Shown: positions 4,237 through 54,899 of the stretch, in pieces | How positions within the stretch are numbered: position 1 is the first letter of the stretch | How the letters are laid out: each line of letters starts with the position of its first letter | Source of the DNA: a virus | Virus record (IMG/VR): IMGVR_UViG_3300017762_000005 | Strand: one strand, 5' to 3' | Length of the DNA stretch: 59,466 nt | Made by a program: the position numbers and the translations under genes | The notes under the pieces: model-generated | What the model was told of the DNA's origin: nothing | What the model saw: only the letters and a program-made list of their open reading frames with translations | Databases searched by the model: none

Positions 4237-4713
4237 ATGAATTTAAGTCGTAATTTTACTTTATCAGAATTAATTAAATCAGACACAGCAATCCGTAAGG
4301 GTATTAATAATAATCCTAACGCAGAACAAATAGAAAAATTAAAAGCATTGTGTGAAAATATTTTACAACCAGTACGTGACCATTTCGGCAGAGTTAAAAT
4401 TACCAGCGGATTTCGTAGCGTGGCATTGTGTGAAGCTATCGGTAGCTCGGCACGATCACAACATGCAAAAGCTGAGGCGGCAGATTTTGAATGTATTGGC
4501 GTAGACAACGCTGAATTATTTGATTGGATTAAAAATAATCTTTCACCAGATCAATTGATTCTCGAGTTCTACACTCCGGGCGAACCTAACTCGGGCTGGA
4601 TCCACTGTAGCTGGATATCAGATCAACCAAGAGCATCATTCTTACACGCTTTCAAATCAGAAGGTAAAACTAAATATAAACCAATACTAGGCTCAGCAAA
4701 GGAGTTAATATAA
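4237..4713 (+). CDS. Endolysin, peptidase M15 family (zinc D-Ala-D-Ala carboxypeptidase / L-Ala-D-Glu peptidase fold)
   Basis: 'FTLSELIKSDTA...N.P', 'ITSGFRS', 'SQHAKAEAADF' and a later 'WIHCSW' match the M15 H-x6-D...H pattern. Confidence 0.85.
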   Translation: MNLSRNFTLSELIKSDTAIRKGINNNPNAEQIEKLKALCENILQPVRDHFGRVKITSGFRSVALCEAIGSSARSQHAKAEAADFECIGVDNAELFDWIKNNLSPDQLILEFYTPGEPNSGWIHCSWISDQPRASFLHAFKSEGKTKYKPILGSAKELI

Positions 4714-4714
4714 T

Positions 4715-4849
4715 ATGGCAATAACGAGATCACAAATACCTAAACAAATAGAGGGTAAGTTAAGAGGTGCTAGAGATGAAAAAGAAAAAAAACGAAGAGT
4801 TATCGCATCTATTAAAAAGAAATCCAGAAGCAAAAAAGTTAAGGTCTAG
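4715..4849 (+). CDS. Micro-ORF, very basic (44 aa)
   Basis: AAGGAG 10 nt upstream; starts 2 nt after the endolysin stop; overlaps 4776..4919 in another frame. Confidence 0.35.
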   Translation: MAITRSQIPKQIEGKLRGARDEKEKKRRVIASIKKKSRSKKVKV

Positions 4850-4919
4850 AAACTACAAGTCAAAAGTGATACAATCTAAAAAGTTGTACAACAGAAAAAG
4901 GCTTAGACACTATGACTAA
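4776..4919 (+). CDS. Micro-ORF, very basic (47 aa, ...KKLRSRNYKSKVIQSKKLYNRKRLRHYD)
   Basis: Its stop overlaps the next ATG (4912). Alternative to 4715..4849. Confidence 0.3.
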   Translation: MKKKKNEELSHLLKRNPEAKKLRSRNYKSKVIQSKKLYNRKRLRHYD

Positions 4920-5307
4920 ATTATGTGCTAGAGGCAAAGCGGCCGCTAAAAGAAAATTTCGAGTATATCCTTCAGCATATGCTAATGCTTATGCTAGTAA
5001 GATATGTGCTGGTAAAATTAAAGACCCAAGTGGTGTAAAAAGAAAAGATTTTAAAGGACCAAAACCAGCTGGTAAGGTTGTTGGTGGTGAGGCTAAAATT
5101 AAAAAAGTTATAGGTGGTTTAAAAAAAGCATCTAAAACACATGCGGCTCAAGCTAAAACTTTACAATCTGTTGTAAAAGCTTCTGATGGACAATTTGCAC
5201 AAAAATTGCAATCTTACGATGGTAGCTATATGAGAGGCGATTTAGCTGGTCATAAGGTATCAAATAAAAGTTTAAATAATTATTACAAAGGAATGATCGA
5301 TGGCTAA
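4912..5307 (+). CDS. Small basic protein ('CARGKAAAKRKFRVYPSAYANAYASKIC' motif), function unknown
   Basis: 131-aa ORF with C-terminal 'YYKGMIDG'. First of a run of small Lys/Gly-rich proteins. Confidence 0.6.
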   Translation: MTKLCARGKAAAKRKFRVYPSAYANAYASKICAGKIKDPSGVKRKDFKGPKPAGKVVGGEAKIKKVIGGLKKASKTHAAQAKTLQSVVKASDGQFAQKLQSYDGSYMRGDLAGHKVSNKSLNNYYKGMIDG

Positions 5308-10457: not shown

Positions 10458-11711
10458 ATGGCTTCAAGTTATTCAGCAGATTTAAAATTAGAACTTATGG
10501 TAACTGGCGAAAATGCTGGTACATGGGGTGATAATACAAATGAAAATTTAAAATTAGTTCAACAAGCAATAGCTGGTTATGAAGCAGTTGCATTATCAAA
10601 TGGTGGAACTGTGGCTCTTGCAATGTCTGATGGAGCATTATCAAACGCAAGAAATATGGTAATTAAATTTACTGGAACCTTAACAGGTGCATCAGTAGTA
10701 ACAATTCCAAATTCAATTGAAAAATTTTATATTTTTGATTTATCCGCAGTTGGTGGAATAACTAATCTTACAATTAAAACTGTAAGTGGAACAGGGTTTA
10801 CTCCTGCTGAAGCAAAAATAGTTGCAGCTTATTCTGACGGAACAAATTTAAATGAGATAGCATTAGACACATTAGGTGGAACTATTGGAACTGCACAAAT
10901 TGCTGATGATGCAGTGACTAACGCAAAAATAGCTGATGATGCTGTAAGAGCCGCACAGATTTCAAACAACGCAGTTGTAACTGCAGGAATTTTAGATGCG
11001 AATGTAACTACGGCTAAAATTGCCGATGACGCAGTAACGACAGCCAAAATTTTAGATGACAATGTAACTGCTGGTAAATTAGCAGATACTTCAGTGACTG
11101 CAGGATCATATACACTTGCATCAATTACAGTAGATGCACAAGGAAGATTAACTGCTGCCTCAACAGGTGCGGCTGGTGGAGCAAATATGATTTTGACGAG
11201 ATCAGAAAAAGGACCTAATAGTGGAAACCACGTTGCACAACCAAACGCTACAAAAATTTTAGCTTACTGTTTAGGTGGCGGTGGTCCCGGTGGCCGAGGT
11301 GCTTTTAACTCACCAGGAGTTGGTGGACAAGGTGGAACTGGTGGCGGAGGAGCATTCTTAATTCCAATATCACAACCTTCTACATCAGCTTATGTTGTAG
11401 GTGGTGCTGCTGCAACTACTACTTTTGGAAATAATGCAACAGGTGGAGCAGGAAATGGTGGACAAGCAGTAACCCCTCCCGGTGGACCTCCAGGAAACCC
11501 AGGTAACACGGGGACTTCAACTGGAAACCATTTAGTTGTAGATTATGGCCCAGGTAATTTTGGTGGTAACTTTGTAGCCACTTTAGCTGGAAATATACCT
11601 TCCATAAATGGTGGTGGAAATGGTGGTGGTGCACAAACAACAAACCCTAATTTTCCAGGACAACCAGGACAACCGGGTGCACTAATAATCTACGAAGATT
11701 TAGGAGCATAA
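10458..11711 (+). CDS. Tail fibre protein
   Basis: N-terminus 'LKLELMVTGENAGTWGDNTNENL', about 6.5 copies of an 11-aa repeat (KIADDAVTxA), and a Gly/Pro-rich C-terminus with X-P-G runs. Confidence 0.75.
   Translation: MASSYSADLKLELMVTGENAGTWGDNTNENLKLVQQAIAGYEAVALSNGGTVALAMSDGALSNARNMVIKFTGTLTGASVVTIPNSIEKFYIFDLSAVGGITNLTIKTVSGTGFTPAEAKIVAAYSDGTNLNEIALDTLGGTIGTAQIADDAVTNAKIADDAVRAAQISNNAVVTAGILDANVTTAKIADDAVTTAKILDDNVTAGKLADTSVTAGSYTLASITVDAQGRLTAASTGAAGGANMILTRSEKGPNSGNHVAQPNATKILAYCLGGGGPGGRGAFNSPGVGGQGGTGGGGAFLIPISQPSTSAYVVGGAAATTTFGNNATGGAGNGGQAVTPPGGPPGNPGNTGTSTGNHLVVDYGPGNFGGNFVATLAGNIPSINGGGNGGGAQTTNPNFPGQPGQPGALIIYEDLGA
10890..11108 (+). repeat. In-frame 33-bp (11-aa) tandem repeats inside the tail fibre gene
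   Basis: AQIADDAVTNA / KIADDAVRAAQ / ISNNAVVTAG / ILDANVTTA / KIADDAVTTA / KILDDNVTAG / KLADTSVTAG. Confidence 0.75.
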
Positions 11712-12179: not shown

Positions 12180-12932
12180 ATGTTAGAGAAACAAATTGAG
12201 TTTATTGCACCTAAATCATATTTTAATTTAAAACAAGATTATCCAAAACCTATTAAATTAAACATACCTGACTGGTATAAAAAACTAGAGCATTCTGTAA
12301 ACAATAGAACAATTAAGGGATGTATTCCTGTATTAGACAGTTTGACTTTTGGTTATTCCTTATCAATACCAGTTGATATTACTATTCATCACAATGTTAC
12401 TAACAAAGACAAAAATGGAAAAGAATTTAAAGATTCTTTTTATGGGTGTCCTATTGAAAAAAATATGCCAAGTGAAGGTATAAATATTAATGATGGAACT
12501 CATTTTTCTAACCATCCTATAGGACAATTAAAAGGTTCTCCACATGTTGAAAAAAATAAAAATTTACCATTTTATAAAATTTCTAATCCTTGGATAATAA
12601 AAACACCACCTGGTTATTCTTGTTTATTTGTTCCTCCATTAAATAATGCAGACGATAGGTTTACTATTATACCTGCTATTGTAGATACGGATACTTTTCA
12701 TAAAGAAATAAATTTTCCTATAGTATTAAATGGTGATAAATATCCTAATCTTGAAACAACACTTAAAAAGGGTACGCCTTATGTACAAGTAATACCTTTT
12801 AAAAGAGATAATTGGAAAATGAAATTATCAACTATGGAGGAAAGAAAAAATAGGCTTAATAATTTTTTGTATCCTTTAAGAATACTTCATACATATAAAC
12901 TAGATTTTTGGAATAAAAAATCATGCAAGTAA
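12180..12932 (+). CDS. Conserved phage protein, function unknown (first gene of the oxygenase island)
   Basis: 250-aa ORF with 'IPDWYKKL...IKGCIPVLDSL' and 'IIPAIVDTDTF..INFP'. A cupin-like fold is only a guess. Confidence 0.55.
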   Translation: MLEKQIEFIAPKSYFNLKQDYPKPIKLNIPDWYKKLEHSVNNRTIKGCIPVLDSLTFGYSLSIPVDITIHHNVTNKDKNGKEFKDSFYGCPIEKNMPSEGININDGTHFSNHPIGQLKGSPHVEKNKNLPFYKISNPWIIKTPPGYSCLFVPPLNNADDRFTIIPAIVDTDTFHKEINFPIVLNGDKYPNLETTLKKGTPYVQVIPFKRDNWKMKLSTMEERKNRLNNFLYPLRILHTYKLDFWNKKSCK

Positions 12933-13501
12933 AGTCTTATGAATTAGGCCAGTATGTAAAATTAGTAGATGGAATCTTTTCTGAAAAAATGTTAGATACA
13001 TTTTATAGAGTATGTAAAGAAGTTAATTTTGAAGATTCACTTGTGGGTGGAGGAGAAGGAATAGTTAATAAAGAAATTAGAAATACTTTAGTACTTCCAT
13101 TAAGTAAATATCAAAAAAATTTAACTTTAGTACATTGGTCAAATTATTTTGCTAACAAATTAAATAATGCAATTGTAAATCATTATTTACCTATTGTACC
13201 CCACCTAGCTATAAATCCAGTTCAAGATATACAGCTTTTAAAATATGAAGAGGGTGGATTTTATAAACCTCACGTTGATCATTTTAATGCTATACCTAGA
13301 ACATTAAGTATTGTAACATTTATAAATGATGATTACCAAGATGGTCATTTTGAAATGTTTTCTCCAGATGAAAAACATTCACAAAAGGTAGAACCTAAAA
13401 AAGGTAGAACAATTATGTTTCCTTCAAATTTTTTATATCCCCATAAGGCTAATGTGGTCAAAGGGGGTACAAGATATGCTATGGTAGCTTGGTGTTTATA
13501 A
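12923..13501 (+). CDS. 2OG-Fe(II) oxygenase, prolyl 4-hydroxylase-like
   Basis: 'KPHVDHF' (HxD), 'DYQDGHFEMF', 'YPHKANVV' (distal His), 'GTRYAMVAW' (2OG-binding Arg). Confidence 0.8.
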   Translation: MQVKSYELGQYVKLVDGIFSEKMLDTFYRVCKEVNFEDSLVGGGEGIVNKEIRNTLVLPLSKYQKNLTLVHWSNYFANKLNNAIVNHYLPIVPHLAINPVQDIQLLKYEEGGFYKPHVDHFNAIPRTLSIVTFINDDYQDGHFEMFSPDEKHSQKVEPKKGRTIMFPSNFLYPHKANVVKGGTRYAMVAWCL

Positions 13502-13502
13502 T

Positions 13503-14063
13503 ATGAAAATAAAACAAGATTTTAAATATAAGATAGTAAAAAATTTTCTGACTAAGGAAGAAATAGGTTTATTAAAAGATTATGCTATATTAAGACATAG
13601 ACATAACACTTCTGAATTTGATGATGCACAAAGTAATAATGTTGCAGATTTTGCTACTTACGCAGATCCTATAATGGAATCTTTACTTCTTCAAAAGAAA
13701 ACATTAATGGAAAAAGAAACTGGTATAAATTTATTACCTACTTATTCTTTTTGGAGAATGTACACAAAATTTTCTGATTTACCTAAACACAAAGATAGAC
13801 CTTCTTGTGAAATAAGCACTACAGTTAATATTGCTTCTGATGGAACTACTTGGCCTATTTTTATGGATGGTAAGCCATTACATTTAGAAAGTGGAGATGC
13901 AGCTATTTACTTGGGAATGGAGTTAACACATTGGAGAGAAGAGTTTAAAGGAGATTGGTGTGCTCAAGTTTTTTTACACTATGTTGATAAAGATGGTCCT
14001 CATGCATCTTTTGTAAAAGATAAAAGAGAACATTGGGGAATGGCTAAAAATAAAGGAGAATAA
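13503..14063 (+). CDS. 2OG-Fe(II) oxygenase superfamily protein
   Basis: 'LPKHKDRPSCE' (HxD) and 'ELTHWREEF' (distal His) with jelly-roll spacing. Confidence 0.6.
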   Translation: MKIKQDFKYKIVKNFLTKEEIGLLKDYAILRHRHNTSEFDDAQSNNVADFATYADPIMESLLLQKKTLMEKETGINLLPTYSFWRMYTKFSDLPKHKDRPSCEISTTVNIASDGTTWPIFMDGKPLHLESGDAAIYLGMELTHWREEFKGDWCAQVFLHYVDKDGPHASFVKDKREHWGMAKNKGE

Positions 14064-14293
14064 TGAAAATAATAATGAACCCAAAAAATGGTTATTCAGA
14101 GTGGACATTTGATAAAAAAGAAATAAAGGCAATTAATAAACATGGTAAATTAATTTGTGAGCCTCAATTTATAAGACATTTTTCAAATGTTTTAATTAAG
14201 TTAGTGACAGATATTACTGTAAATCTAGATGAAGAAACTAGAAAAATTAATACTAAACCAAAAACAGCGAATAGACCTAACTCTGAATATTAA
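14063..14293 (+). CDS. Small hypothetical protein
   Basis: 76-aa ORF with TAATG overlap. Confidence 0.5.
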   Translation: MKIIMNPKNGYSEWTFDKKEIKAINKHGKLICEPQFIRHFSNVLIKLVTDITVNLDEETRKINTKPKTANRPNSEY

Positions 14294-14307
14294 ATAATCT
14301 AGTGATC

Positions 14308-14336
14308 TTCAATTAAAGGTCTAAAAATGTTATAAT
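14308..14336 (+). promoter_or_regulatory. Sigma70-like promoter with extended -10, placed for a leaderless transcript
   Basis: TTCAAT-N17-(TGt)TATAAT. The -10 ends 5 nt before ATG 14342, and no SD is present. Confidence 0.4.
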
Positions 14337-14341
14337 TCCAT

Positions 14342-16492
14342 ATGCCTTTAACAAACGTACAAATAAGACCAGGATTTAATAAACAGGTTACTGAAACAGG
14401 AGCTGAAGGTCAATGGACTGACGGTGATAATGTTAGATTTAGATATGGCCTTCCAGAAAAAATAGGTGGATGGCAAGAGATATTAGCCGATGAATTAATA
14501 GGTGCAGCTAGAGAACAATTGGTTTGGGCAGATTTAGATGGAAGAAGATATGCGGCTATTGGAACTAATAAAGTATTAGTTATATATTATGAAGGTGCTT
14601 TCTATGACATCACACCACTTGATAGTGCAAAAACTGGAGCAACATTTACTACTGTAAATAATGATGCAACAGTTACGGTAAATTTAATTTCACACAATTT
14701 AGTAGCTGGAGATTTATTTACATTTACTTCTGTAACTCCTCCTAGTGGAGCAGGATATGTAGCAGCAGACTTTACCACTAATACTTTTCAAGTAGTCACA
14801 GCCCCTACTAATAATACTTTTACAATTACGATGGCAGCTAATGCTGGAACTTCTGTAATCAACAGTGGTGCAGCTACAGTAAATCCTTATATTACTATTG
14901 GTCCTTTAAATCAAAGTGCTGGGTATGGATGGGGCACAGCCTCATGGGGCGGAGCTTCTGGTGTTATATCAACATTGAATGGAGCCTTACTAGATGATAC
15001 TGCTGGTACGGGAGGATCTGGAACATCAATAACCTTAACTTCGGTAACTGGTTTTCCTACATCTGGAACTATAAAGGTTGGGGCTGAATTTATTTCTTAC
15101 ACTGGAATCTCATCAAATGATTTAACAGGTATTACAAGAGCTGCCGCGGGTACGAGATCTGCACACTCAAACGGATCCTCAGTAGAATACTATACTGGTT
15201 GGGGAGAACAATCATTATCTTCATCAGTTATTCTAGATCCAGCTTCATGGTCACTAGATCATTTTGGAGAAAAATTAATAGCAACAGTTAAAAATGGTAA
15301 TACTTTTGAATGGGATCCTATTCACTCAGATCCAAATGGTTTATCAACAAGAGCAACTGTTGTAAGTAATGCACCTACAAAATCAATAATGTCTATTGTT
15401 TCAGAAAGAGATAGACATTTAATTATTCTTGGAACTGAAACAACTATTGGAACATTAAATACTTATGACCCAATGTTTATAAGATTTTCAGATCAAGAAA
15501 ATATTTCAGAATATGCACCTACTTCTACTAATACAGCTGGTACTTTTAGATTAGACTCTGGTGTAAAAATAATAGGAGCAGCTAAAGCAAAAGATTATAT
15601 TTTAATATTAACGGACACTTCTGCGTATGTAATGCAATTTGTTGGCCCACCTTTTACTTTTTCAATAAGGCAAGTAGGATCTAATTGTGGAGCCATTGGC
15701 CAACACTCTATTAAATATGTAAATGGAGCAGTTTGGTGGATGGGTCAAGCAGGAGGATTTTTTGTATACGATGGTACAGTTAAATCAGTTCCATGTTTAG
15801 TTGAAGATTTTGTATTTACTACAAAAGGAGATAATTTAGGAATTAATTATAATTCTGGTGAACTTGTTTATGCAGGTCTAAACCATTTATACGAAGAAAT
15901 AAATTGGTTTTATGCAAAAGATGGTTCTGAAAATATAGATAGAGTTGTTACCTATAACTATACAGAAAATACTTGGACTACGGGTTCTCTTGCAAGAACT
16001 ACTTGGCATGACTCTACTTTATATGATTTTCCTTATGCAACTGAATTTAACAAAGATTTCAATCCAAGTTTTCCAGTAGTACAAGGTGTTACAAATATTA
16101 ATGGTTCAACTAGATACTATGCCCATGAAATTGGTAATAACCAAGTATCATTTCAAGGTGCTAAGACTGCAATTGAAGCATTTATACAATCAGGAGACTT
16201 TGACTTATCTCAAGGAGGTGATGGTCAAATGTTTATGAGTATGAGAAGATTTGTTCCAGACTTTAAGTTGCTGACTGGTGATTGTCAAATTACAATTAAC
16301 TTAAGAAGATTTCCTAGTGATACTGCAACCTCCTCGCCTCTCGGACCTTTTACAGTTACAAGTTCTACGGAAAAAGTAGATACAAGAGCTAGATCTAGAT
16401 TTGCTAGTGTAAAAATTGCAAATACATCAACAGATCAAAATTGGAGATATGGTACTTTTAGAGTAGATGTTCAACCAGATGGAATGAGATAA
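14342..16492 (+). CDS. Large tail structural protein (nozzle or tail-hub-like)
   Basis: 716-aa ORF. N-terminus 'VQIRPGFNKQVTETGAEGQWTDGDNVRFRYGLPEKIGGW' is typical of podovirus tail proteins. Carries the module shared with 6491..7402. Confidence 0.6.
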   Translation: MPLTNVQIRPGFNKQVTETGAEGQWTDGDNVRFRYGLPEKIGGWQEILADELIGAAREQLVWADLDGRRYAAIGTNKVLVIYYEGAFYDITPLDSAKTGATFTTVNNDATVTVNLISHNLVAGDLFTFTSVTPPSGAGYVAADFTTNTFQVVTAPTNNTFTITMAANAGTSVINSGAATVNPYITIGPLNQSAGYGWGTASWGGASGVISTLNGALLDDTAGTGGSGTSITLTSVTGFPTSGTIKVGAEFISYTGISSNDLTGITRAAAGTRSAHSNGSSVEYYTGWGEQSLSSSVILDPASWSLDHFGEKLIATVKNGNTFEWDPIHSDPNGLSTRATVVSNAPTKSIMSIVSERDRHLIILGTETTIGTLNTYDPMFIRFSDQENISEYAPTSTNTAGTFRLDSGVKIIGAAKAKDYILILTDTSAYVMQFVGPPFTFSIRQVGSNCGAIGQHSIKYVNGAVWWMGQAGGFFVYDGTVKSVPCLVEDFVFTTKGDNLGINYNSGELVYAGLNHLYEEINWFYAKDGSENIDRVVTYNYTENTWTTGSLARTTWHDSTLYDFPYATEFNKDFNPSFPVVQGVTNINGSTRYYAHEIGNNQVSFQGAKTAIEAFIQSGDFDLSQGGDGQMFMSMRRFVPDFKLLTGDCQITINLRRFPSDTATSSPLGPFTVTSSTEKVDTRARSRFASVKIANTSTDQNWRYGTFRVDVQPDGMR

Positions 16493-16656
16493 TGGCAAGA
16501 GTAGATATAGTTATACCTGAACCTACACCAGTTTATACTGAAGATAACCAAAGACAAGTTGCTCAATCTTTACAAACATTAAAAGATAAGCTAAACACTT
16601 CTTATCAACAAGAATTAAAAAATGAACAAGATGCATTTAATTACTTTTTATCATGA
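16492..16656 (+). CDS. Small hypothetical protein (54 aa)
   Basis: TAATG overlap upstream and ATGA overlap downstream. Below the ORF-track cutoff. Confidence 0.5.
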   Translation: MARVDIVIPEPTPVYTEDNQRQVAQSLQTLKDKLNTSYQQELKNEQDAFNYFLS

Positions 16657-17003
16657 CTATAAGATATAAAAATCAAGGATATAAACAATCAGACACAAGC
16701 AAGACAACAGCTCTTACATGTCCTTCTAATGCAACAATAATTATTAAAAGTATTTATTGTTCTAACAATGATGGTTCATCAGCTATTCTAGTTAATATGA
16801 ATTTAGTAGACTCATCTGATTCAAGTGCTGAGTACGAATTTTTTAGAGATGACGTTGCTGCAAAATCTCAAGTAAATGCTGCACCACAAGGAATAAATTT
16901 AGAAGCAGGAGATGCAATCACAATTCAAGCAGCTACTGGAAGTAACAAAATTCAAGGTGCTATAAGTTATGCACAAATAGACAGATCTCAAGAGAATGGC
17001 TAA
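16653..17003 (+). CDS. Hypothetical protein
   Basis: 116-aa ORF, translationally coupled on both sides. Confidence 0.6.
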   Translation: MTIRYKNQGYKQSDTSKTTALTCPSNATIIIKSIYCSNNDGSSAILVNMNLVDSSDSSAEYEFFRDDVAAKSQVNAAPQGINLEAGDAITIQAATGSNKIQGAISYAQIDRSQENG

Positions 17004-17454
17004 AGAGCTATACTACGAAACAAAAATTTATAATAATATAATTAATAAAGTAAATGATGTTATAAACAAATATCCAATCAAAGGTAGAGTTGAAACTAAT
17101 GAACACTCTACTCATAATGGTTTTCAAACACATAATATATTAGATATTTTTCCAGAAGATATTCTGAAAGAAATTGTTCCTATAAATAATCTTTATAAAG
17201 ATATATTTCATCTTCATTATATTTCATATTTCAAAGGGGGTTTTCAAAGAGCCCATAATCATAGAAGAACAGAGAAGTTTTCATTTATTTTATATTTAAA
17301 TGATTCGGATGGAAGTACTGTTTTTAATAGTATTTCAAGAGAAGCAATACCAGCTAAAGGTAAATTAATCCTTTTCTCATCTAGCTTAATGCATTATAGT
17401 AAACCATCATATAAAGATAAAAAAATAATAGTTGGTGCTATTGGCAAAAAATGA
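16996..17454 (+). CDS. Putative 2OG-Fe(II) oxygenase (TIGR02466 / 2OG-FeII_Oxy_5-like)
   Basis: 'AHNHRRTEKFSFILYLND' and 'LILFSSSLMHYSKP'. Confidence 0.55.
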   Translation: MAKELYYETKIYNNIINKVNDVINKYPIKGRVETNEHSTHNGFQTHNILDIFPEDILKEIVPINNLYKDIFHLHYISYFKGGFQRAHNHRRTEKFSFILYLNDSDGSTVFNSISREAIPAKGKLILFSSSLMHYSKPSYKDKKIIVGAIGKK

Positions 17455-17894
17455 CAGAAATAGAAAATTTTTTACACCCAAACATTTGTAAGTATTTAAT
17501 AAATTTTTATAAAGAGAATTCAAGTCTTTCAAAAACTTTTAATAAAAGACATTGTCTTCATTTATTAGATTTAAATTATAATGACGCTACAGTACAAAAT
17601 GTTGTTAATAAATATAAACTAATTAGACCTAATCAATATTTAAAAAATATAGAATTAATTTTTTGGCCAGTAGGAGAATCACATGATTGGCATGATGATA
17701 CTATTTATTATGATTACACAACAATCACTTATCTAAATGATAATTATAAAGGTGGAGAAACAACTGTAGAAAAATATAAAATAAAACCAAAGACTGGTAA
17801 AATATGTTTATTCTCTTCTACTAAAAAGCATAAGGTTGATATACTCGAAGAAGGGTATCGTTATGTTATATTAGCGTGGTATAAAAATGGCTAA
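17451..17894 (+). CDS. 2OG-Fe(II) oxygenase, P4H-like
   Basis: 'WHDD' (HxD), 'NYKGGETTV', 'KKHKV', 'GYRYVILAW'. Confidence 0.7.
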   Translation: MTEIENFLHPNICKYLINFYKENSSLSKTFNKRHCLHLLDLNYNDATVQNVVNKYKLIRPNQYLKNIELIFWPVGESHDWHDDTIYYDYTTITYLNDNYKGGETTVEKYKIKPKTGKICLFSSTKKHKVDILEEGYRYVILAWYKNG

Positions 17895-18450
17895 TATAAT
17901 AAGTAAAATTATTTTTACTAAAAAAGAGGCTTCATTAATATCTAAATTTATTCTTGAAAATGAGAATACAATTAAAAGTTTAGGTCAATCTTCTTACGAT
18001 TTGACTAATAAAAATTCTTTAACAGGTACCTTCAGTTTTTTTAATTTTTTAAATTCTGAAATTGGTGGCTTGTTAAAAGAAAAAGTATTTAAATTTTTAA
18101 AAGAACAAAATATTTTTAAACCATTATATATACAATGTTGGGCAAATACTTTTAGAAAAAATGAAGGTATTGGTCTCCATAAACATGCGGAAGGGCTAGA
18201 AGAATATTTATGTGCTAATATATTTATTGATGGTGATGAAGATATTGGAACAACTTATGTTATAGATAATAATAATTATTATTTTAAAAATACTATAGGG
18301 GAAATAACTTTATTTAGTTCTCAAATTCCACATTTTGTAAGAAAAAACAAAAATGATAAAGTAAGAATTTCTGTAGCTATGGATATACACCAAAACAAAA
18401 ATACTGCAGGAGATGTAGAAAATAAAATAAGATATTATTATTATACCTAA
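17887..18450 (+). CDS. Putative 2OG-Fe(II) oxygenase / cupin
   Basis: 'GLHKHAEG...ANIFIDGD' and 'ITLFSSQIPHFV...RISVAMDI'. Confidence 0.5.
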   Translation: MANIISKIIFTKKEASLISKFILENENTIKSLGQSSYDLTNKNSLTGTFSFFNFLNSEIGGLLKEKVFKFLKEQNIFKPLYIQCWANTFRKNEGIGLHKHAEGLEEYLCANIFIDGDEDIGTTYVIDNNNYYFKNTIGEITLFSSQIPHFVRKNKNDKVRISVAMDIHQNKNTAGDVENKIRYYYYT

Positions 18451-18501
18451 CGATTGATCTTGAAAAAAGTTTACGATATGTTATTTTAATATGATATAAA
18501 A

Positions 18502-18639
18502 ATGGCTCGTCAAAAATTTACACATTTTATTCCAAGAGATAAACCAAAAAAAAGAGGTCCTGGTCAACATAAAAAAAGACTTAACAAGCATGAGAAACGT
18601 CAAAGAAAACAAACACGTTACAAGGGCCAGGGGCGTTAG
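18502..18639 (+). CDS. Arg/Lys-rich micro-protein (45 aa, MARQKFTHFIPRDKPKKRGPGQHKKRLNKHEKRQRKQTRYKGQGR)
   Basis: ATG 18502. Its stop TAG 18637-18639 overlaps the GTG start of the next gene. Confidence 0.4.
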   Translation: MARQKFTHFIPRDKPKKRGPGQHKKRLNKHEKRQRKQTRYKGQGR

Positions 18640-19220
18640 TGAAAAAAATCTTATGGCAAGATTCTATAATTCATGATAATTTTTACGATGAAGACACCTC
18701 TATTCGTATAAAAGATATACTTAACATTTGTAAGGCAAATAATAATTTTGTAAATAAATCTAATGTAAATGGTTTTCAAACTAAAACTTTAGATGATAAA
18801 ATAATAGCAAAACAAATTGTAGAATGGTCTGCAATTTTAATTAAAAATGAATATAAAGTAAAATCAAATATAAAACTTGATCTAGAATTAAATAATTTTT
18901 GGATTAATGAAAATTACAAGTACAGTTATAACAGATCCCATACTCATCCCGGTGCTAATTTATCTGGTGTCTATTATTTAGATGTACCAGAAAATTCTGG
19001 TAATATTTTTTTTGAAGATTTTACTAAGCAATTTACAAATTTACACAGTTGCTTTGAAGGTGAGGAGTTTCAAAACTATATGTCCTTAAAAAATAATACA
19101 AATCAATTAGTAATTTTTCCATCTAACATTACACATGGAGTGGAAGCAAGTAAGACTGACAAACCTAGAGTATCTTTGTCTTTTAATTTAGTATTGCATT
19201 ATCAAACAAAATCTGTATAA
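18639..19220 (+). CDS. 2OG-Fe(II) oxygenase, TIGR02466-like
   Basis: 'SHTHPGANLSGVYYLDVPENSGNIFFED' and 'LVIFPSNITHGVEA...RVSLSFNL' are canonical for this family. Confidence 0.8.
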   Translation: MKKILWQDSIIHDNFYDEDTSIRIKDILNICKANNNFVNKSNVNGFQTKTLDDKIIAKQIVEWSAILIKNEYKVKSNIKLDLELNNFWINENYKYSYNRSHTHPGANLSGVYYLDVPENSGNIFFEDFTKQFTNLHSCFEGEEFQNYMSLKNNTNQLVIFPSNITHGVEASKTDKPRVSLSFNLVLHYQTKSV

Positions 19221-19228
19221 AATAACTT

Positions 19229-19429
19229 ATGAGTGATAATTTAGTAAAAATACCAGCCGAAGCAAAAGAAATAATTAAACATAAAAGATCTGGAAAAATT
19301 TATGCAACAAAAGCAGATTTTGATGCAGATGTAGCAGATCCAAATACTGATACAACTCAAGAAGACTTTAGACAAGATCTTGAAATAAAAGTTACAAGAG
19401 TTTCAATGGGTGCTGCAACAAAAGAATAA
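19229..19429 (+). CDS. Small acidic hypothetical protein
   Basis: 66-aa ORF with TAATG overlap downstream. Confidence 0.5.
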   Translation: MSDNLVKIPAEAKEIIKHKRSGKIYATKADFDADVADPNTDTTQEDFRQDLEIKVTRVSMGAATKE

Positions 19430-20364
19430 TGCTTCCAAGAGGTGCAACCGAATTACAAATGGAAATGCTTTATAAGTATGTTCCAAAAGAAGTATTAGAT
19501 CAAGTACAAATATGTACTTCTATTCCCGGTAAGGTGCCATTAGATCCTAACAAATTAAATATTCTTTGGCAAAAAAATTCTTGGGATCAACCAAATCTAC
19601 AACCTTTTTTTAGCAATAGAGAAAGACATAAAGAATATGATTGGTATGTTTTTAATAGTCATTGGAATTATGAAAAGTTTAGATACTTTCACAACATTCC
19701 ACCAGAAAAATCTGTAGTAATTAAAAATGGTATTGATAAGTTTCCAAAGAGAAAAGTTTATAAAAAAGGAGATCCTATAAAAATTATTCATCATTGCACA
19801 CCATGGAGAGGATTAAATGTTGTTCTTCGTGCTATGCAAGAAATAAAAAATCCTAATATTATATTAGATGTATATAGCTCCTCACAAGTTTATGGAGATG
19901 AATTTGCAAAATCTCACGATGAACAATTTAAACCTTTATATGAACAAGCAGAAAAATTATCTAATGTAAATTACATAGGTTATAAACCTAACGAATATAT
20001 TTTAGAACAAATGCCTAACTATGATATATTTGTTTATCCAAGTATTTTTGAAGAGACATCTTGTGCATCAGCCCTTGAGGCTTTGGCTTCTGGAGTTCAT
20101 ATAATTACAAATAATTTTGGAGCTCTATATGAAACTTGTGCAGAGTGGCCAGTATATGTAAATTATACAACTGATTATGAAAGTATGGCGATAGCTACGG
20201 GAAATGCTATTAACACTGCAGCGGAATACATGCATGAAGATTTTATACAAGATCACCTAGAAGAACAACAAAAGTTTTATAAAAGATTTTATAGTTGGAA
20301 TAAAAAAGGAATAGAATGGACAAACTTTTTAAAAGGAGCTTTGCGTGAAAGAAACAGTAAATAA
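19429..20364 (+). CDS. Glycosyltransferase, GT-B fold (group 1 / GT4-like)
   Basis: 'YPSIFEETSCASALEALASGVHIITNNFGALYE' matches the E-x7-E donor-binding region. Confidence 0.75.
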   Translation: MLPRGATELQMEMLYKYVPKEVLDQVQICTSIPGKVPLDPNKLNILWQKNSWDQPNLQPFFSNRERHKEYDWYVFNSHWNYEKFRYFHNIPPEKSVVIKNGIDKFPKRKVYKKGDPIKIIHHCTPWRGLNVVLRAMQEIKNPNIILDVYSSSQVYGDEFAKSHDEQFKPLYEQAEKLSNVNYIGYKPNEYILEQMPNYDIFVYPSIFEETSCASALEALASGVHIITNNFGALYETCAEWPVYVNYTTDYESMAIATGNAINTAAEYMHEDFIQDHLEEQQKFYKRFYSWNKKGIEWTNFLKGALRERNSK

Positions 20365-21217
20365 AGATACATATCAAACTCTTAAAGAAATCAGAGTAAA
20401 TTCGGAGTTAGGAGAAAAAGCAGTTTTACCAATGTGGAAACCTAAAACTAACCAAGAAGAACAATCTCCAATATCTATATTTCTAGCAACTCCAGTTCAT
20501 AGTGAATGTTCAATTCACTATGCTCAAGCATTACTAGAGTTTCAAAAACTATGTTTTAAGAAAAAAGTTAAGGTTAATTTTTCTTTAGTGAAATCATCTT
20601 TAGTAACTCAAGGTAGAAATCTATGTGTTGCTGGTTTTTTAGAATCAAATTATACACACATGCTTTTTATAGATTCTGATATTTATTTTAGTGCAGAATC
20701 TATCTTTAAAATGATTGAAAAAGATAAAGATGTAATATCTATACCCTATCCATTAAAAACAATTATGTGGGATAAGACTATGGATAGAATAAAAAATGGA
20801 GATATAAAAACTGTAAATGATTTAAAAAGTTCATTTAATACATACCCAATGAGAGTAGATGATGACAACAATATTAAAATTAAAGATGGGGTTATTGAAG
20901 TAACTCATAGCCCTACTGGATGTATGATGATTAAAAGATCTGTATTTGATAAGATGATAAAAGCATATCCAGACAAAAGTATTGTACAAAAAACTGTTAT
21001 AAATGGTCAATATGTAGATAGACCTCATATGTGGAATTTTTTTGACACGATTCACGACCCAGAAACAAAAACTTACTTAGGTGAAGATTTTTCATTTTGT
21101 AAACTTTGGAAAGAAATTGGAGGAATATGTCATGCTTATATTACAGATCGAATTATACATATTGGGGAGCATCAATATGAAGGACGTTTTGTTGATGAGT
21201 TGAAACCTAACAAGTAA
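20345..21217 (+). CDS. Glycosyltransferase, GT-A fold (family 2-like)
   Basis: GTG start. 'MLFIDSDIYF' (DxD), 'DVISIPYPLK', 'GCMMIKRSVFDK', 'GEDFSFCKLW'. Confidence 0.7.
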   Translation: MKETVNKDTYQTLKEIRVNSELGEKAVLPMWKPKTNQEEQSPISIFLATPVHSECSIHYAQALLEFQKLCFKKKVKVNFSLVKSSLVTQGRNLCVAGFLESNYTHMLFIDSDIYFSAESIFKMIEKDKDVISIPYPLKTIMWDKTMDRIKNGDIKTVNDLKSSFNTYPMRVDDDNNIKIKDGVIEVTHSPTGCMMIKRSVFDKMIKAYPDKSIVQKTVINGQYVDRPHMWNFFDTIHDPETKTYLGEDFSFCKLWKEIGGICHAYITDRIIHIGEHQYEGRFVDELKPNK

Positions 21218-27282: not shown

Positions 27283-27726
27283 GTGTTTGAAAAAAATAAA
27301 ATAAAATTTGCACAACCCTTTGATTTTAATTCTTGTTCAAGAATATTAAATTCAGGCCATTATGTATCTCAAATAAATAGTCAATGGTTATCAGAATATG
27401 TATTACATTCTACTTTTCAAATAAAAGGTATACAAGAAAATCCAGATTTAAGAGATATGTACAATTACTTACAAAAAAATTTTAATAAAAATAATTCTAA
27501 TTCTGATTTAGATATTTTTTATAGTATGCAATCAGGAATTAAAAGCCCAACACATAGAGACGATTATGATGTATTTATTATTGGAGCATTAGGAAGAACT
27601 TTATATAAAGTAGAAGACAAAGAATTTATTGTAGAACCTGGTGATATGCTTCATATACCAGCAAGAAGTTTACATGTAGCAATTGGTTTAGATCCTAGAA
27701 TTATTTTTTCATATGCAACTTATTAA
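27283..27726 (+). CDS. Cupin / JmjC-like oxygenase
   Basis: 'PTHRDDYDVFIIGALG' (HxD) and 'GDMLHIPARSLHVAIG'. Confidence 0.55.
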   Translation: MFEKNKIKFAQPFDFNSCSRILNSGHYVSQINSQWLSEYVLHSTFQIKGIQENPDLRDMYNYLQKNFNKNNSNSDLDIFYSMQSGIKSPTHRDDYDVFIIGALGRTLYKVEDKEFIVEPGDMLHIPARSLHVAIGLDPRIIFSYATY

Positions 27727-32825: not shown

Positions 32826-34437
32826 ATTTTTAAAAGAACTTTACCATAAAACAGTAAAGATCTTTGGTCCTCCCGGTACAGGTAAGACTTATACTTTAAT
32901 AGAAAAAGTATTAAAAAGTTATTTAAGAAAAGGTATAAGGCCACAAGAAATAGCTTACTTATCTTTTACCAATAAAGCTGTTAACACAGCTGTTAGAAGA
33001 GCAATGGAATCTTTTCCTAACTACACTACTGATGACTTCGCAAGATTTAAAACATTACATACTTACTGTAGAAGATATTTTCCAGAAGAAGTATTTGACC
33101 CAAAAGATTGCACAATAGATTTTGCACTTCAAACTAAAGTAATTAAGAGTAGTGACAAAAGATTAGCCGATGATAATTTTATGTATAAGGATTGGTCATT
33201 AGGTGTTTATAGTAAATCTAGAAATTTATTAATTACACCAGAAGAAGCTTATAGAAGAGAGACATATAAGAGAGATTCTCTTACTGTTTTTTTAAGAAAG
33301 ATAAGCACTTATGAACATTATAAAACTGGTGGAGGAGAAAGATCATTTATAGATTTTGATGATATGATTGAAAGAGCTATAACTGAAATAGATTTTCCCT
33401 CATTAAAAGTTTTAATTTTAGATGAAGCTCAAGATTGTACTCCTTTACAATGGTCGGTTATTTATAAGATGGCACCTAAAGTAAAAAGAATTTACTTAGC
33501 TGGGGATGACGATCAAGCTATATATAAATGGAATGGAGCTGATCCAAAATATTTTACAAAATTCTTTCCAGGTAGAAAAGTAAAGCTTAGGAAGACACAA
33601 AGATTTGGAGAAGCAATTCATAGATTCTCACAAGTTATTAGAAGAGGTATAAGTGATAGTGAAGAAAAAGAATACTTACCAGGAGACACAAAAGGTTTTG
33701 TTAAAGCTTACTTATCTTTTAAGGAAATACCTTTTGAAAATTTTAAAGAAGATTGGTACATCCTTGGCCGTATTAATGAAACTGTTAATGAGTTAAGAAT
33801 GTTAGCTAAGGATGCTGGTCTCTATTATAAAGATAATAAAGGAACAAAATGTTTTGATCAGAAACAATGGGAATCTATTAAAGCTTGGACTGCATTAACA
33901 AATGGAAAAAAAATAGATAAGAAAGCAGCTCGTAATATGTATAAGAATATTAGAGAACTAGAAGACCCTAATTATAGATTAGATAAGTTTTGGAGAAATG
34001 AACCTGATATGAGAGAGTATGATTTTCAAACTTTAAAAGAATGGTGTGGTTTAACACTAGAGGATAGCCAAAAGAATAAGCCTTGGTTTTGGATATTAAG
34101 AAGAAATTTTAAACCAAAACAAGTAAGACATTTTATTAGACTACTTAGGAGATATGGACAAAAAGAATTAGACAAAGATCCATTAATAACTATTGATACA
34201 ATTCATAGTGTTAAAGGTGGGGAAGCAAATCATGTAGTGCTTTACAGTAAGGGTAATTATCCGTCTGATTATAGAAATAAAAATAAAAAAGAAAAAAGTG
34301 ATGAAAAGAAAGTTTGGTATACTGGTGCAACTAGAGCAAGAAAAACTTTACATTTGTTAAGAAGTGATTATAAGTTTAATTATCCAATTGGCTCTGATTA
34401 TTTAATATATGTTCAAGAAAAAAATAATGAAAAATAA
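32791..34437 (+). CDS. SF1 DNA helicase (UvrD/PcrA-like)
   Basis: 'GPPGTGKT', 'ILDEAQD', 'LAGDDDQAIY', 'TIHSVKGGEA', 'YTGATRAR'. Confidence 0.8.
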   Translation: MMNTTQESLELKFLKELYHKTVKIFGPPGTGKTYTLIEKVLKSYLRKGIRPQEIAYLSFTNKAVNTAVRRAMESFPNYTTDDFARFKTLHTYCRRYFPEEVFDPKDCTIDFALQTKVIKSSDKRLADDNFMYKDWSLGVYSKSRNLLITPEEAYRRETYKRDSLTVFLRKISTYEHYKTGGGERSFIDFDDMIERAITEIDFPSLKVLILDEAQDCTPLQWSVIYKMAPKVKRIYLAGDDDQAIYKWNGADPKYFTKFFPGRKVKLRKTQRFGEAIHRFSQVIRRGISDSEEKEYLPGDTKGFVKAYLSFKEIPFENFKEDWYILGRINETVNELRMLAKDAGLYYKDNKGTKCFDQKQWESIKAWTALTNGKKIDKKAARNMYKNIRELEDPNYRLDKFWRNEPDMREYDFQTLKEWCGLTLEDSQKNKPWFWILRRNFKPKQVRHFIRLLRRYGQKELDKDPLITIDTIHSVKGGEANHVVLYSKGNYPSDYRNKNKKEKSDEKKVWYTGATRARKTLHLLRSDYKFNYPIGSDYLIYVQEKNNEK

Positions 34438-34975
34438 ATTAGAAGATTATATACACATTGAAAATAAATTATCAAAAGAAGTTTGTTCTGAATTAATTTC
34501 TAATATCACCAATGAAACTTGGGATAAACATTACTGGCATCACAATGAAAAAAAACAATTAATCGAACCAGATAAAAATGATTTAGATATTCTTTTTTCT
34601 AACCCATATCAAAGAGATTTACTAATAGATCCTATAACTGAAGTGTTAGTTAATTATCAAAAAATACATTCAAACTCTATATTTGTGCACAAACTTTCTA
34701 CAATAAGGTTTAATAAATATACTGAGAATACTGAAATGAAAGAACACTATGATTTAATAAGTAGTATTTTTAGTAACAGTGAGGGTGTACCAATAATATC
34801 TATTATAGGAAACTTAAATGAAAATTATGAAGGTGGAGATTTTTATTTGAATAAAAACAAAATTAGTTTAAGGTGTGGGGATATAATGCTATTTCCTTCT
34901 ACCTTTCTATATCCACATAAAGTAACTAAAGTAAGAAAGGGGACTAGGTATTCTTTTGTTACCTGGGCATATTAA
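34409..34975 (+). CDS. 2OG-Fe(II) oxygenase, P4H-like
   Basis: 'KEHYD' (HxD), 'NYEGGDFYL', 'LYPHKVTKV', 'GTRYSFVTW'. Confidence 0.75.
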   Translation: MFKKKIMKNKLEDYIHIENKLSKEVCSELISNITNETWDKHYWHHNEKKQLIEPDKNDLDILFSNPYQRDLLIDPITEVLVNYQKIHSNSIFVHKLSTIRFNKYTENTEMKEHYDLISSIFSNSEGVPIISIIGNLNENYEGGDFYLNKNKISLRCGDIMLFPSTFLYPHKVTKVRKGTRYSFVTWAY

Positions 34976-35240: not shown

Positions 35241-35834
35241 ATGAGTGAAATATGTAGTTTTAATATTCCTGATGAAATCTATAATGTGCTTAATAAAATT
35301 ATAAAAGACAAATCAAAAAAATATAATTCAAGATTAGCTGGGAATATAAAAGAAGAATATAATTTACAAGAACATATCCCTTATGTAAAAAAATTTATAG
35401 AGACAATTGCTGATAATAACTTTAAATGGATGAAAAATTTTCCTTTATCTTCAAACAAAAACAAGTGTTTAGTTTTAAAAGAATTATGGGTTAACTACCA
35501 AAAGAAATTAGAGTTTAATCCTTTACATTGTCACGATGGAATTTTGAGTTTTATATTATTTATTAAAATTCCTTATAACATTGAAGATGAATTAAAGGCA
35601 GCTCCCGGTATTGATTCAGTAAAAAATTTAGCAGGTCATTTACAATTTGTTTGTCCTAATAAAGGTTTCTTTAGATCACTAGAAACAAAATCTATCCCAG
35701 TAGATAAAAAATTTGAAAAGAAAGGTTTGATGTTTCCTGCTCTATTGTATCACACAGTTTACCCTTTTTATAAAAATGAAGATTTAAGAATAACAATTTC
35801 TGGAAATTTATTTTTAGATGACAAAACAAATTAA
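35241..35834 (+). CDS. Putative 2OG-Fe(II) oxygenase (TIGR02466-like)
   Basis: 'NPLHCHDGILSFILFIKIP' and 'LMFPALLYHTVYP...RITISGNL'. Confidence 0.6.
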   Translation: MSEICSFNIPDEIYNVLNKIIKDKSKKYNSRLAGNIKEEYNLQEHIPYVKKFIETIADNNFKWMKNFPLSSNKNKCLVLKELWVNYQKKLEFNPLHCHDGILSFILFIKIPYNIEDELKAAPGIDSVKNLAGHLQFVCPNKGFFRSLETKSIPVDKKFEKKGLMFPALLYHTVYPFYKNEDLRITISGNLFLDDKTN

Positions 35835-54253: not shown

Positions 54254-54411
54254 TGTGGAAATGGATAAAAAATTTATTTAAAAGAGAGCCTAACAAAGAT
54301 CCTCATATTGAATTTTATGAAGATCCTGATTATTCCAAAATGAGTAAAGGTGATCTTAAAAAATTAAGAGCTCAAGGTAAAATAAAATCTATCTATCCAC
54401 CTTATATTTAG
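54253..54411 (+). CDS. Small hypothetical protein (52 aa)
   Basis: TAATG overlap upstream. Its 3' end overlaps the convergent - strand gene by 4 nt. Confidence 0.4.
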   Translation: MWKWIKNLFKREPNKDPHIEFYEDPDYSKMSKGDLKKLRAQGKIKSIYPPYI

Positions 54412-54899
54412 TTTTTTCTCCACCAAAAGATAATTGTTTTTCTATCATTATTAAAAACTTTTTTAACACCATGGTGTACGGTTTGGCCATTGAAAAAGGT
54501 AAGCATACCTTTTTTGGGTTTTAAATTTATTCCATTTTTTGTATAGAATTCTCCACCCTTAAATTTTTCATTAAGATAAATTAAACTATTATATTCAATA
54601 TGTTCTCTGCCAGAATGATTATGTATGTGAAGACTAGCAGAAGAACCAGCATGATGGTTTTGTATTTCTGCTTGTTCAATAATTAATTTATTATTAAATC
54701 TTTTATTAATATATTTAGTAACTTTTTGTACTATTGGATCTTTAGTTATATCTATAATTCTGTCCTCCCAAGGTAGTGAGTTTTCTTGATAGCCTATATC
54801 ATTAATCATTTTAAAATATTTTTTACACAATCTAGGCGATAAAAAATTATCTAATACGTACATTTTATCACCATTTGAAATTATTTTTTTCATTTGCAA
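54408..54899 (-). CDS. 2OG-Fe(II) oxygenase, P4H-like (- strand moron in the head module)
   Basis: 'SLHIHNH', 'KFKGGEFY', 'GQTVHHGV', 'RKTIIFWW'. Confidence 0.65.
   Translation of the reverse strand: MQMKKIISNGDKMYVLDNFLSPRLCKKYFKMINDIGYQENSLPWEDRIIDITKDPIVQKVTKYINKRFNNKLIIEQAEIQNHHAGSSASLHIHNHSGREHIEYNSLIYLNEKFKGGEFYTKNGINLKPKKGMLTFFNGQTVHHGVKKVFNNDRKTIIFWWRKN

Follow-up and report, generated by a model that had tools for sequence, protein, structure and literature searches.

Ten genes of the 2OG-Fe(II) oxygenase superfamily, with a predicted prolyl-hydroxylase-like 'ferrochelatase' and a variable gene slot, in an HTVC023P-type pelagiphage contig

The viral DNA analyzed here, IMG/VR record IMGVR_UViG_3300017762_000005 (59,466 nucleotides; hereafter the window), carries ten genes of the 2-oxoglutarate- and Fe(II)-dependent (2OG-Fe(II)) oxygenase superfamily, most of them inside the tail gene block. 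We favor the reading, which we hold to be fairly probable, that these genes belong to a known accessory family of marine-phage 2OG-Fe(II) oxygenases in a copy-rich member of the HTVC023P type and do not constitute a single dedicated pathway. The original prediction, made from the letters of the window, had instead proposed that the oxygenases and two glycosyltransferases encoded between positions 12,180 and 21,217 form one island for hydroxylating and glycosylating virion proteins. Because most of the open reading frames (ORFs) have collinear HTVC023P orthologues, in a circularly permuted order, the window reads as a contig of genome length from a SAR11 podovirus of the HTVC023P type (a pelagiphage). 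A 9.3-kb region matched Pelagibacter phage HTVC023P with 75% nucleotide identity over its glycosyltransferase end, and the large virion protein of 716 amino acids (aa) was 56-61% identical to its HTVC023P and HTVC027P counterparts. Genes are named below by their left-hand coordinate, and their positions are collected in Table 1.

The census of oxygenase genes was taken by iterated profile searches of every window ORF with 50 aa or more. These searches joined nine ORFs in one superfamily and recruited no further paralogue from among the ORFs covered. Together with 27283, which belongs to another branch (JmjC/cupin), the total is ten, the number that had been predicted. All ORFs named in the original prediction are present where it placed them and at the length it gave, and each enzyme class it assigned is backed by profile, structural, or conserved-residue evidence. 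Seven ORFs (12923, 17451, 34409, 54408, 17887, 18639, and 35241) exceeded Pfam cut-offs, falling into a 2OG-FeII_Oxy_3 and a 2OG-FeII_Oxy_5 group that correspond to the two subfamilies recognized earlier, one prolyl 4-hydroxylase (P4H)-like and one TIGR02466-like. The P4H/PHD clade comprises 12923, 17451, 34409, and 54408, all of which match PF13640, and 13503, which joins it by structure; the top PDB sequence matches of 12923 were PHD2 and Pseudomonas PPHD. The short slot protein 16996 scored 24.6 bits with the Oxy_3 profile against a cut-off of 27 bits and is backed by PHROG_81 (7.5e-11) and by the iterated profiles. In the second subfamily, 18639 scored 75.4 bits with TIGR02466, above the curated NCBIfam cut-off of 62.5, and the TIGR02466 matches of 17887 and 35241 were weak. 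Finally, 27283 aligned with the catalytic core of YcfD, the ribosomal protein L16 arginine hydroxylase, as well as with a cupin-4 protein in the PDB, and has none of the accessory domains of YcfD. Pairwise identity among the paralogues does not exceed 34%, and because of this divergence we regard them as old lineages and not as recent tandem duplicates. Their catalytic domains are bare (147-197 aa), and the G+C content of the oxygenase genes is 0.23-0.30, compared to 0.35-0.41 for the structural genes and a window mean of 0.327.

We scored the conservation of metal and 2OG ligands in the homologues of each paralogue from related contigs. The 2-His-1-carboxylate triad (H-x-D...H) was present and conserved in five paralogues: 12923 (H117-x-D119...H174...R184, kept in 47 homologues), 13503 (H96-x-D98...H143-x-R145, invariant), 17451 (H81-x-D83...H127...R137), 34409 (H113-x-D115...H170...R180), and 27283 (H91-x-D93...H131). 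The TIGR02466-like proteins have a histidine at the carboxylate position, with H98-x-H100...H149...R160 in 17887, H101-x-H103...H166...R177 in 18639, and H96-x-H98...H171...R183 in 35241, the pattern also found in the PF13759 structures 2rg4 and 3bvc. A conserved arginine lies 10-12 residues past the distal histidine in seven paralogues and at +2 in 13503. As regards the HxD/HxH...H signature ascribed earlier to the island proteins, ligands are kept in homologues, with the H-x-H replacement as a qualification; the H-N-H of 16996 was read from the window sequence, this protein having a single close homologue, and in 54408 only H91...H143...R153 are conserved among the ligand positions. The oxygenases are presumably catalytically active. 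Membership of 18639 in TIGR02466/PF13759 gives no mechanism, since the family is itself uncharacterized; our search of the literature found no functional study of it.

The second gene of the conserved oxygenase pair, 13503, encodes the protein for which database labels and predicted structure disagree. It matched PHROG_2954, annotated 'ferrochelatase', at 1e-47, had no Pfam family at E<=1, and found no PDB entry by sequence, either alone or as a profile. An AlphaFold2 model built from 33 sequences had a mean predicted local distance difference test score (pLDDT) of 91.2 and a predicted TM-score of 0.87. Foldseek searches of the PDB with this model returned as best matches Dictyostelium PhyA, Pseudomonas PPHD (alone and with EF-Tu), human PHD2, and the collagen prolyl hydroxylase of PBCV-1, the prolyl hydroxylase matches having E values of 2e-8 to 2e-6 and TM-scores of 0.6 to 0.68; the PBCV-1 enzyme (vCPH, PDB 5c5t) ranked 22nd at 1.7e-6. 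The best 50 matches were double-stranded beta-helix oxygenases only, with no ferrochelatase among them. The protein was also recruited by iterated profiles begun from 17451 and 54408, and it shares the H-x-D...H...R arrangement of the PHD-type hydroxylases. Ferrochelatases are two-domain proteins of ~310 aa, and 13503 has 186 aa. As modeled, 13503 is very probably a prolyl-hydroxylase-like double-stranded beta-helix oxygenase that has been mislabeled; the model, the Foldseek matches, and the invariant ligands bear out its earlier designation as a dioxygenase. The 'ferrochelatase' label of the whole family and of PHROGs 2954 and 3531 looks like a propagated misannotation, traceable to 2010 at the latest (PMC3037559). 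PHROG_3531 aligns with 13503 through its positions 11-179 and with 12923 through positions 262-361, a hint that the two may occur in fused form.

The family of 13503 is large. It has more than 7,000 metagenome cluster representatives, and no precomputed Pfam domain was present among 120 listed. Family members occur in at least 154 phage records, mostly of cyanomyoviruses, S-PM2 and one pelagimyophage being included, and most of the listed records among these carry the 'ferrochelatase' annotation. In contigs related to the window, a 12923-type gene lies beside the 13503-type gene on the same strand in at least 53 of 71 cases. The family is also found in bacterial chromosomes (loci L090-L168, for example L140, L090, and L153), with 35-43% identity. 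In Lysobacterales the gene lies between pgi and queG/nnr/tsaE, with panC also in the neighborhood, a context that is chromosomal, not phage-like, and that points to no pathway. A P4H-like partner adjoins the gene in ~24 of 80 loci from cellular genomes, although some of the loci filed as cellular are phage DNA binned into metagenome-assembled genomes (for example L089, L130, and L145). The re-reading of the 'ferrochelatase' as a predicted prolyl-hydroxylase-like enzyme that is present in ordinary bacterial chromosomes as well is new here. The original prediction had suggested virion proteins as substrates. The chromosomal occurrence between pgi and queG speaks against a substrate confined to virions.

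A separate observation concerns L145, a contig of Pelagibacterales SAG-MED28. At 3995-5193 it carries a 13503-like and a P4H-like gene as a pair; two tail-fibre-like genes immediately precede the pair, and a peptidase M15 gene follows it. This stretch has the look of a phage but differs in organization from HTVC023P.

We followed gene order in 80 IMG/VR contigs whose 716-aa protein is 74-99% identical to that of the window, out of roughly 435 related contigs, after classifying their ORFs. The shared order in these contigs runs fibre479 - fibre417 - [p141] - 12180 - 12923 - 13503 - [p76] - 716-aa protein in its first half and 716-aa protein - p116 - SLOT - p66 - GT-B - GT-A - internal proteins in its second. 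The protein at the center of this order matched PHROG_3287 (virion structural protein) at 4e-86, and its tblastn matches carry the labels stabilization, tail, or structural protein. In the window, the genes of the region are on the same strand as the tail genes and their reading frames overlap or nearly abut. Nevertheless, the comparison does not uphold a single island: the 80 contigs split the region into a conserved cassette, a variable slot, and a pair of glycosyltransferase genes.

The conserved cassette consists of 12180, 12923, and 13503 and lies just after the tail-fibre genes. At this fibre-side position, 39 of 50 contigs have two oxygenase genes, the range being 1-9; the highest number is found in L055, where eight of the nine are on the opposite strand. 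HTVC023P has four family members only, all of them fibre-side. In HTVC027P the cassette (gp72-74) is encoded on the minus strand and points toward the tail genes; several contigs likewise have it inverted. We also noticed that the interval from the tail fibre to the 716-aa gene is packed with 6-9 oxygenase genes in L055 (5094-9974), L047, and L012, most of them antisense to the tail genes. In the slot, oxygenase genes number zero in 14 of 36 contigs, one in 9, two in 7, and three in 6, and the window has four. The glycosyltransferase genes are kept whatever the number of oxygenase genes in the slot and are found together in 33 of 36 contigs; they may co-occur with the near-universal 12923/13503 pair. 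No fusion of an oxygenase to a glycosyltransferase was found. Outside the tail block, 27283, 34409, 35241, and 54408 are absent at the equivalent positions of HTVC023P.

How slot genes come and go could be read from two close relatives. Across the island, L004 and L005 share 97-98% identity with the window, except that positions 17886-18492 of the window are missing from both. The missing 607 bp are exactly the 17887 gene plus 42 nt. Two copies of a 49-nt imperfect direct repeat, the largest of the island, flank this segment with 76% identity and a spacing of 615 nt, and an identical 13-mer, TATAAAAATGGCT, closes the repeat and is found within the window at these two sites only. The left copy encodes ...RYVILAWYKNG* and the right copy ...RYVILI*. 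The empty site in L004 has one repeat copy. Recombination between conserved gene-end/gene-start junctions, as deduced from these alignments, explains the gain or loss of 17887. The slot structure and this repeat-flanked single-gene indel add to the published description of the clade.

The gene at the head of the cassette, 12180, was considered as an eleventh oxygenase and ruled out, as no oxygenase profile recruited it. Its AlphaFold2 model was moderate (pLDDT 67) and gave weak Foldseek matches to dUTPases in the PDB (E 3.5e-3) and also in BFVD, so a dUTPase-like fold may be present. By eye, two of its stretches, IVDTDTF and PYVQVIPF, look like motifs 3 and 4 of dUTPases. Full-length homologues with ~30% identity occur in the haloarchaeal tailed viruses HF1, HF2, and HRTV, and in HRTV-7 the homologue adjoins thymidylate synthase and DNA polymerase B.

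The region ends with two genes predicted earlier to encode a GT-B and a GT-A glycosyltransferase. The first assignment is secure: 19429 is a GT4-type GT-B protein that scored 48.8 bits with Glycos_transf_1 against a cut-off of 26.4, has the E-x7-E motif (ETSCASALE) at residue 209, and is 74% identical to HTVC023P gp77. The second is weaker, since the Anp1 match of 20345 (19.8 bits) is below the cut-off of 28.8. However, all 26 of its 26 close relatives match Anp1, the best at 1e-6, and one distant relative matches Glycos_transf_2; D110-x-D112 (in LFIDSDIYF) and H272 are invariant. Searches of the PDB by sequence were empty for 19429 and for 20345, the latter alone or as a profile of its close relatives. 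A profile of distant 20345 relatives, drawn from 7,879 clusters, matched one solved structure, the GT-A protein A197 of Sulfolobus turreted icosahedral virus (STIV; PDB 2c0n), in an alignment of ~60 residues that spans the D-x-D motif; with an E value of 0.006, this match is weak. On this evidence, 20345 is probably a GT-A glycosyltransferase. To our knowledge, the acceptor of A197 has not been established. The contexts of the family in other phages are contradictory and leave the acceptor undecided: in Cr30 and phiM12 the homologues lie in the replication module, between the gp46 and gp45 homologues, whereas in cyanophage ACG-2014f the homologue is surrounded by tail-collar fibre genes and accompanied by a further glycosyltransferase gene and a sugar epimerase gene.

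The proposal of collagen-type modification rested on two X-Pro-Gly peptides in the 417-aa fibre, which is 70% identical over 199 aa to HTVC023P gp69, a 'putative tail protein'. Both peptides are present at their predicted coordinates. However, the G-X-Y runs extend over just 4 and 3 triplets, and the proline columns are conserved in 3-62% of 40 orthologous fibres. No collagen-like or proline-rich repeat domain was found in the adjacent fibre, in which these are the longest such runs. A collagen-type hydroxylase would have no collagen-like target domain here. The runs being short and poorly conserved, we discarded the idea of a collagen-like fibre and the analogy built on it. As a side observation, the N-terminal segment of the neighboring fibre-like protein of 479 aa is plastocyanin-like, with a weak Copper-bind match (E 0.14), and many repeats resembling VDVTGIQATMxLG can be seen by eye in this protein.

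Late expression, the other premise of a virion-directed role, holds in a relative of the window phage, from which it is known. RNA-seq of HTVC027P placed gp72-74 (the oxygenase cassette), gp80 (GT-B), and gp81 (the GT-A homologue) in the class 'Late', with the cassette at 15 h reaching ~1/4 to 1/6 of the expression of neighboring structural genes (PMC12753301 Table S3). A consensus promoter and terminator scan of the island itself was uninformative: its counts of promoter-like sites (66, with 61 expected) and of terminator-like sites (4, with 3.6 expected) were close to expectation.

According to the model that we favor, the late tail block is made of three units, namely the conserved cassette, the hypervariable slot, and the conserved GT-B plus GT-A-like pair. 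In this model, slot oxygenase genes are gained and lost singly by recombination between short junction repeats, and each of the four further copies is an insertion of one gene between core genes for replication and morphogenesis. Each oxygenase would most likely act alone, late in infection, on its own substrate, and the chemistry of the H-x-D group would most likely be hydroxylation of protein side chains. We infer, then, protein substrates and oxygenases that work independently of the glycosyltransferases. Several observations weigh against this model. The conserved H-x-H...H of 17887, 18639, and 35241 provides no carboxylate ligand, and 16996 probably lacks one as well. The closest solved relatives of the H-x-H subfamily, 2rg4 and 3bvc, are uncharacterized structural-genomics proteins, which makes the use of 2OG by this subfamily putative. 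Resemblance to PHD-type hydroxylases (PHD2, PPHD on EF-Tu, PhyA) is at the level of the fold or superfamily, the window proteins being just 13-18% identical to them, and does not fix a substrate class. Moreover, the 12923/13503 pair lies near-universally directly after tail-fibre genes, an arrangement that is repeated in the SAR11-associated phage-like contig L145 and is compatible with a fibre-related role.

These last observations bear on the original idea of a virion modification pathway, in which the oxygenases would hydroxylate proline, lysine, or asparagine of virion proteins and the glycosyltransferase pair would add sugars, as in giant-virus collagen. Placement of the genes within the tail block, on one strand and in overlapping or abutting frames, agrees with such a pathway, as do the 'Late' class of their HTVC027P homologues, the position of the pair after tail-fibre genes in most relatives and in L145, the viral GT-A protein A197 as the single solved relative that a profile of 20345 finds, and the tail-collar setting of the ACG-2014f homologue. 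Nevertheless, we consider it unlikely: a collagen-like domain is missing from the fibre, the glycosyltransferase pair persists with zero or three oxygenase genes in the slot, HTVC027P and several contigs have antisense oxygenase cassettes, replication or other modules house four of the copies, members of the 13503 family lie in bacterial chromosomes in a housekeeping context, and the Cr30 and phiM12 GT-A homologues belong to a replication module. A variant in which the 12923/13503 pair and the glycosyltransferases modify tail-fibre or virion-surface proteins, with the rapidly shuffled paralogues engaged in an arms race against SAR11 receptors or defenses by diversifying the chemistry of the virion surface, seems to us quite doubtful. 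If the targets were instead EF-Tu, ribosomal, or other host proteins, hydroxylation would retune the cell late in infection. The relatives of 13503 and 12923 include Pseudomonas PPHD, which was solved with EF-Tu, 27283 aligns with the YcfD catalytic core with its metal ligands conserved, the 13503 homologues of free-living bacteria imply a substrate common to cells, and a P4H-like partner is adjacent in ~24 of 80 cellular-genome loci. But these similarities are superfamily-level, YcfD's accessory domains are missing from the phage proteins, expression late in infection would be strange for enzymes that take over the host, and some of the 'cellular' loci (for example L089, L130, and L145) are phage DNA binned into metagenome-assembled genomes; host-directed hydroxylation thus strikes us as quite unlikely.

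Oxidation of DNA bases by TET/JBP- or AlkB-like oxygenases, followed by glycosylation of the product, would place the same genes in nucleic-acid or nucleotide modification. The window does encode a C5-cytosine DNA methyltransferase (39852-40910), 54408 has a weak Tet_JBP match, 12180 has a weak dUTPase-like fold and a halovirus homologue that adjoins thymidylate synthase, and the Cr30 and phiM12 GT-A homologues lie between gp46 and gp45 homologues. DNA hypermodification genes have moreover been reported in the HTVC023P-type clade (PMC9599517). We looked for TET/JBP and AlkB identities among the paralogues with Pfam and rejected both: none reached the Tet_JBP cut-off and none fell in the AlkB family. 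Only 54408 matched PF12851 (E 0.011; 15.3 bits, where the cut-off is 34.9), and it matched PF13640 far better; all Pfam-matching paralogues score best as P4H- or TIGR02466-type. In addition, the methyltransferase is at least 14 kb from any oxygenase gene, relatives exist with the cassette but without the methyltransferase, and the 12180 model is of low confidence, so that base modification appears improbable. A metabolic role, in which the enzymes would mainly consume 2-oxoglutarate, make succinate, and so shift the carbon/nitrogen status of the host, has in its favor the uncoupled 2OG turnover for which the superfamily is known. It was put forward for cyanophages, whose genes belong to the same Pfam families (PMC3037559). 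Yet that proposal rests on cyanobacterial NtcA signaling, with no shown counterpart in SAR11, a bulk effect needs no ten divergent paralogues with distinct conserved surfaces, and expression of the cassette is low; we regard this role as highly improbable.

The accessory family that we favor as the explanation is well represented in published phages. In HTVC023P-type phages, eight non-orthologous 2OG-Fe(II) genes have been described, often near each other and beside any 'ferrochelatase' present (Wittmers et al. 2022, PMC9599517). The window agrees with that description in clade, superfamily, clustering of non-orthologous copies, and the 'ferrochelatase' neighbor rule for these partner auxiliary metabolic genes, and departs from it in that its 'ferrochelatase' is, by predicted structure, a double-stranded beta-helix oxygenase; it has 10 copies where HTVC023P has 4. 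Cyanomyoviruses carry up to five copies plus a 'Hyp. with ferrochelatase domain' (Sullivan et al. 2010, PMC3037559), and S-SCSM1 carries 24 of the same Pfam subfamilies, the functions of viral 2OG-Fe(II) genes not having been specifically investigated according to the same report (PMC9602691). Like the T4-like cyanophages, the window combines PF13640 and PF13759 proteins of low mutual identity with a 'ferrochelatase'-domain protein. The cyanophages in question are, however, myoviruses of 170-230 kb, whereas the window is a 59-kb podovirus with one copy per 6 kb, a higher density than 24 copies give in a far larger myovirus genome, and most of its copies are inside the tail gene block. The number of paralogues had been called unusual. 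Given the expansion published for the clade (PMC9599517), the up to 24 copies in cyanomyoviruses (PMC9602691), and the nine fibre-side genes of L055, it is not unusual for the clade.

Mimivirus L230 is a lysyl hydroxylase-glycosyltransferase. With such giant-virus collagen enzymes the window shares viral P4H-superfamily oxygenases and glycosyltransferases, but it has neither an adjacent collagen-like substrate nor a fusion, and oxygenases and glycosyltransferases vary independently across its relatives.

Elsewhere in the window, the C5-cytosine DNA methyltransferase gene (Pfam 7e-55) has no counterpart at the same position in HTVC023P. A class I S-adenosylmethionine-dependent methyltransferase gene at 55131-55733 (Methyltransf_24, 3e-9) adjoins the minus-strand oxygenase gene 54408, and HTVC023P lacks it too at the equivalent position. 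The ORFs at 29895-31271 and 47120-47806 match Pfam families of cyanophage Pam3 (gp33-like at 5e-31 and gp34-like at 5e-53), in addition to GP88 (3e-42), matches that link non-structural genes of this pelagiphage to cyanophage families.

Table 1 Features of the late tail block and the oxygenase genes elsewhere in the window
Feature	Coordinates	Strand	Evidence or context
Tail-fibre-like protein, 479 aa	8981..10420	+	Upstream of island, order kept in related contigs
Tail fibre/tail protein, 417 aa, glycine-rich C-terminal part	10458..11711	+	HTVC023P gp69 homologue
Cassette head gene, 250 aa, non-oxygenase	12180..12932	+	PHROG_7084 'unknown function' 3e-39
P4H/PHD-type 2OG-Fe(II) oxygenase, 192 aa	12923..13501	+	Pfam 2OG-FeII_Oxy_3 9e-18
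Second oxygenase of conserved pair (predicted), 186 aa, database label 'ferrochelatase'	13503..14063	+	AlphaFold2 model, Foldseek
Large virion/tail protein, 716 aa, core gene between both oxygenase positions	14342..16492	+	PHROG_3287
Slot oxygenase 1, 152 aa, H-N-H...H	16996..17454	+	Pfam Oxy_3 5e-5, below cut-off
Slot oxygenase 2, P4H-like, 147 aa	17451..17894	+	Pfam Oxy_3 6e-11
Left copy of 49-nt imperfect direct repeat	17844..17892	+	17451 3' end and next start codon
Slot oxygenase 3, TIGR02466-like, 187 aa, single-gene indel	17887..18450	+	Pfam Oxy_5 1e-7
Right copy of 49-nt repeat	18459..18507	+	Decayed oxygenase 3' end, then start of small basic ORF
Basic ORF in slot, 45 aa, MARQKFTHFIPRDKPKKRGPGQHKKRLNKHEKRQRKQTRYKGQGR	18502..18639	+	tblastn in 26 related contigs, 60-100% identity
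Slot oxygenase 4, TIGR02466 member, 193 aa	18639..19220	+	Pfam Oxy_5 2e-21
GT-B glycosyltransferase, GT4-like, 311 aa, core gene	19429..20364	+	Pfam Glycos_transf_1 8e-13
Probable GT-A glycosyltransferase, 290 aa, core gene beside GT-B	20345..21217	+	Anp1 in relatives, D-x-D
Minimal JmjC/cupin oxygenase, 147 aa, between core genes	27283..27726	+	Pfam JmjC_2 / Cupin_2 2e-7
P4H-like oxygenase, 188 aa, between helicase gene and next core gene	34409..34975	+	Pfam Oxy_3 2e-12
TIGR02466-like oxygenase, 197 aa, upstream of DNA polymerase gene	35241..35834	+	Pfam Oxy_5 6e-7
P4H-like oxygenase, 163 aa, between core genes	54408..54899	-	Pfam Oxy_3 4e-9

That marine phages carry 2OG-Fe(II) oxygenase genes in several copies has been noted from the first cyanophage genomes onward. 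In the genomes compared here, their copy number would change through recombination at short repeats located at gene junctions, and would do so even where two genomes share 97-98% identity. The predicted re-annotation of 13503 removes the basis for iron or haem readings of the 'ferrochelatase' pairing. As the conserved core of the family, found in bacteria also, the 12923/13503 pair is a sensible first target for biochemistry.

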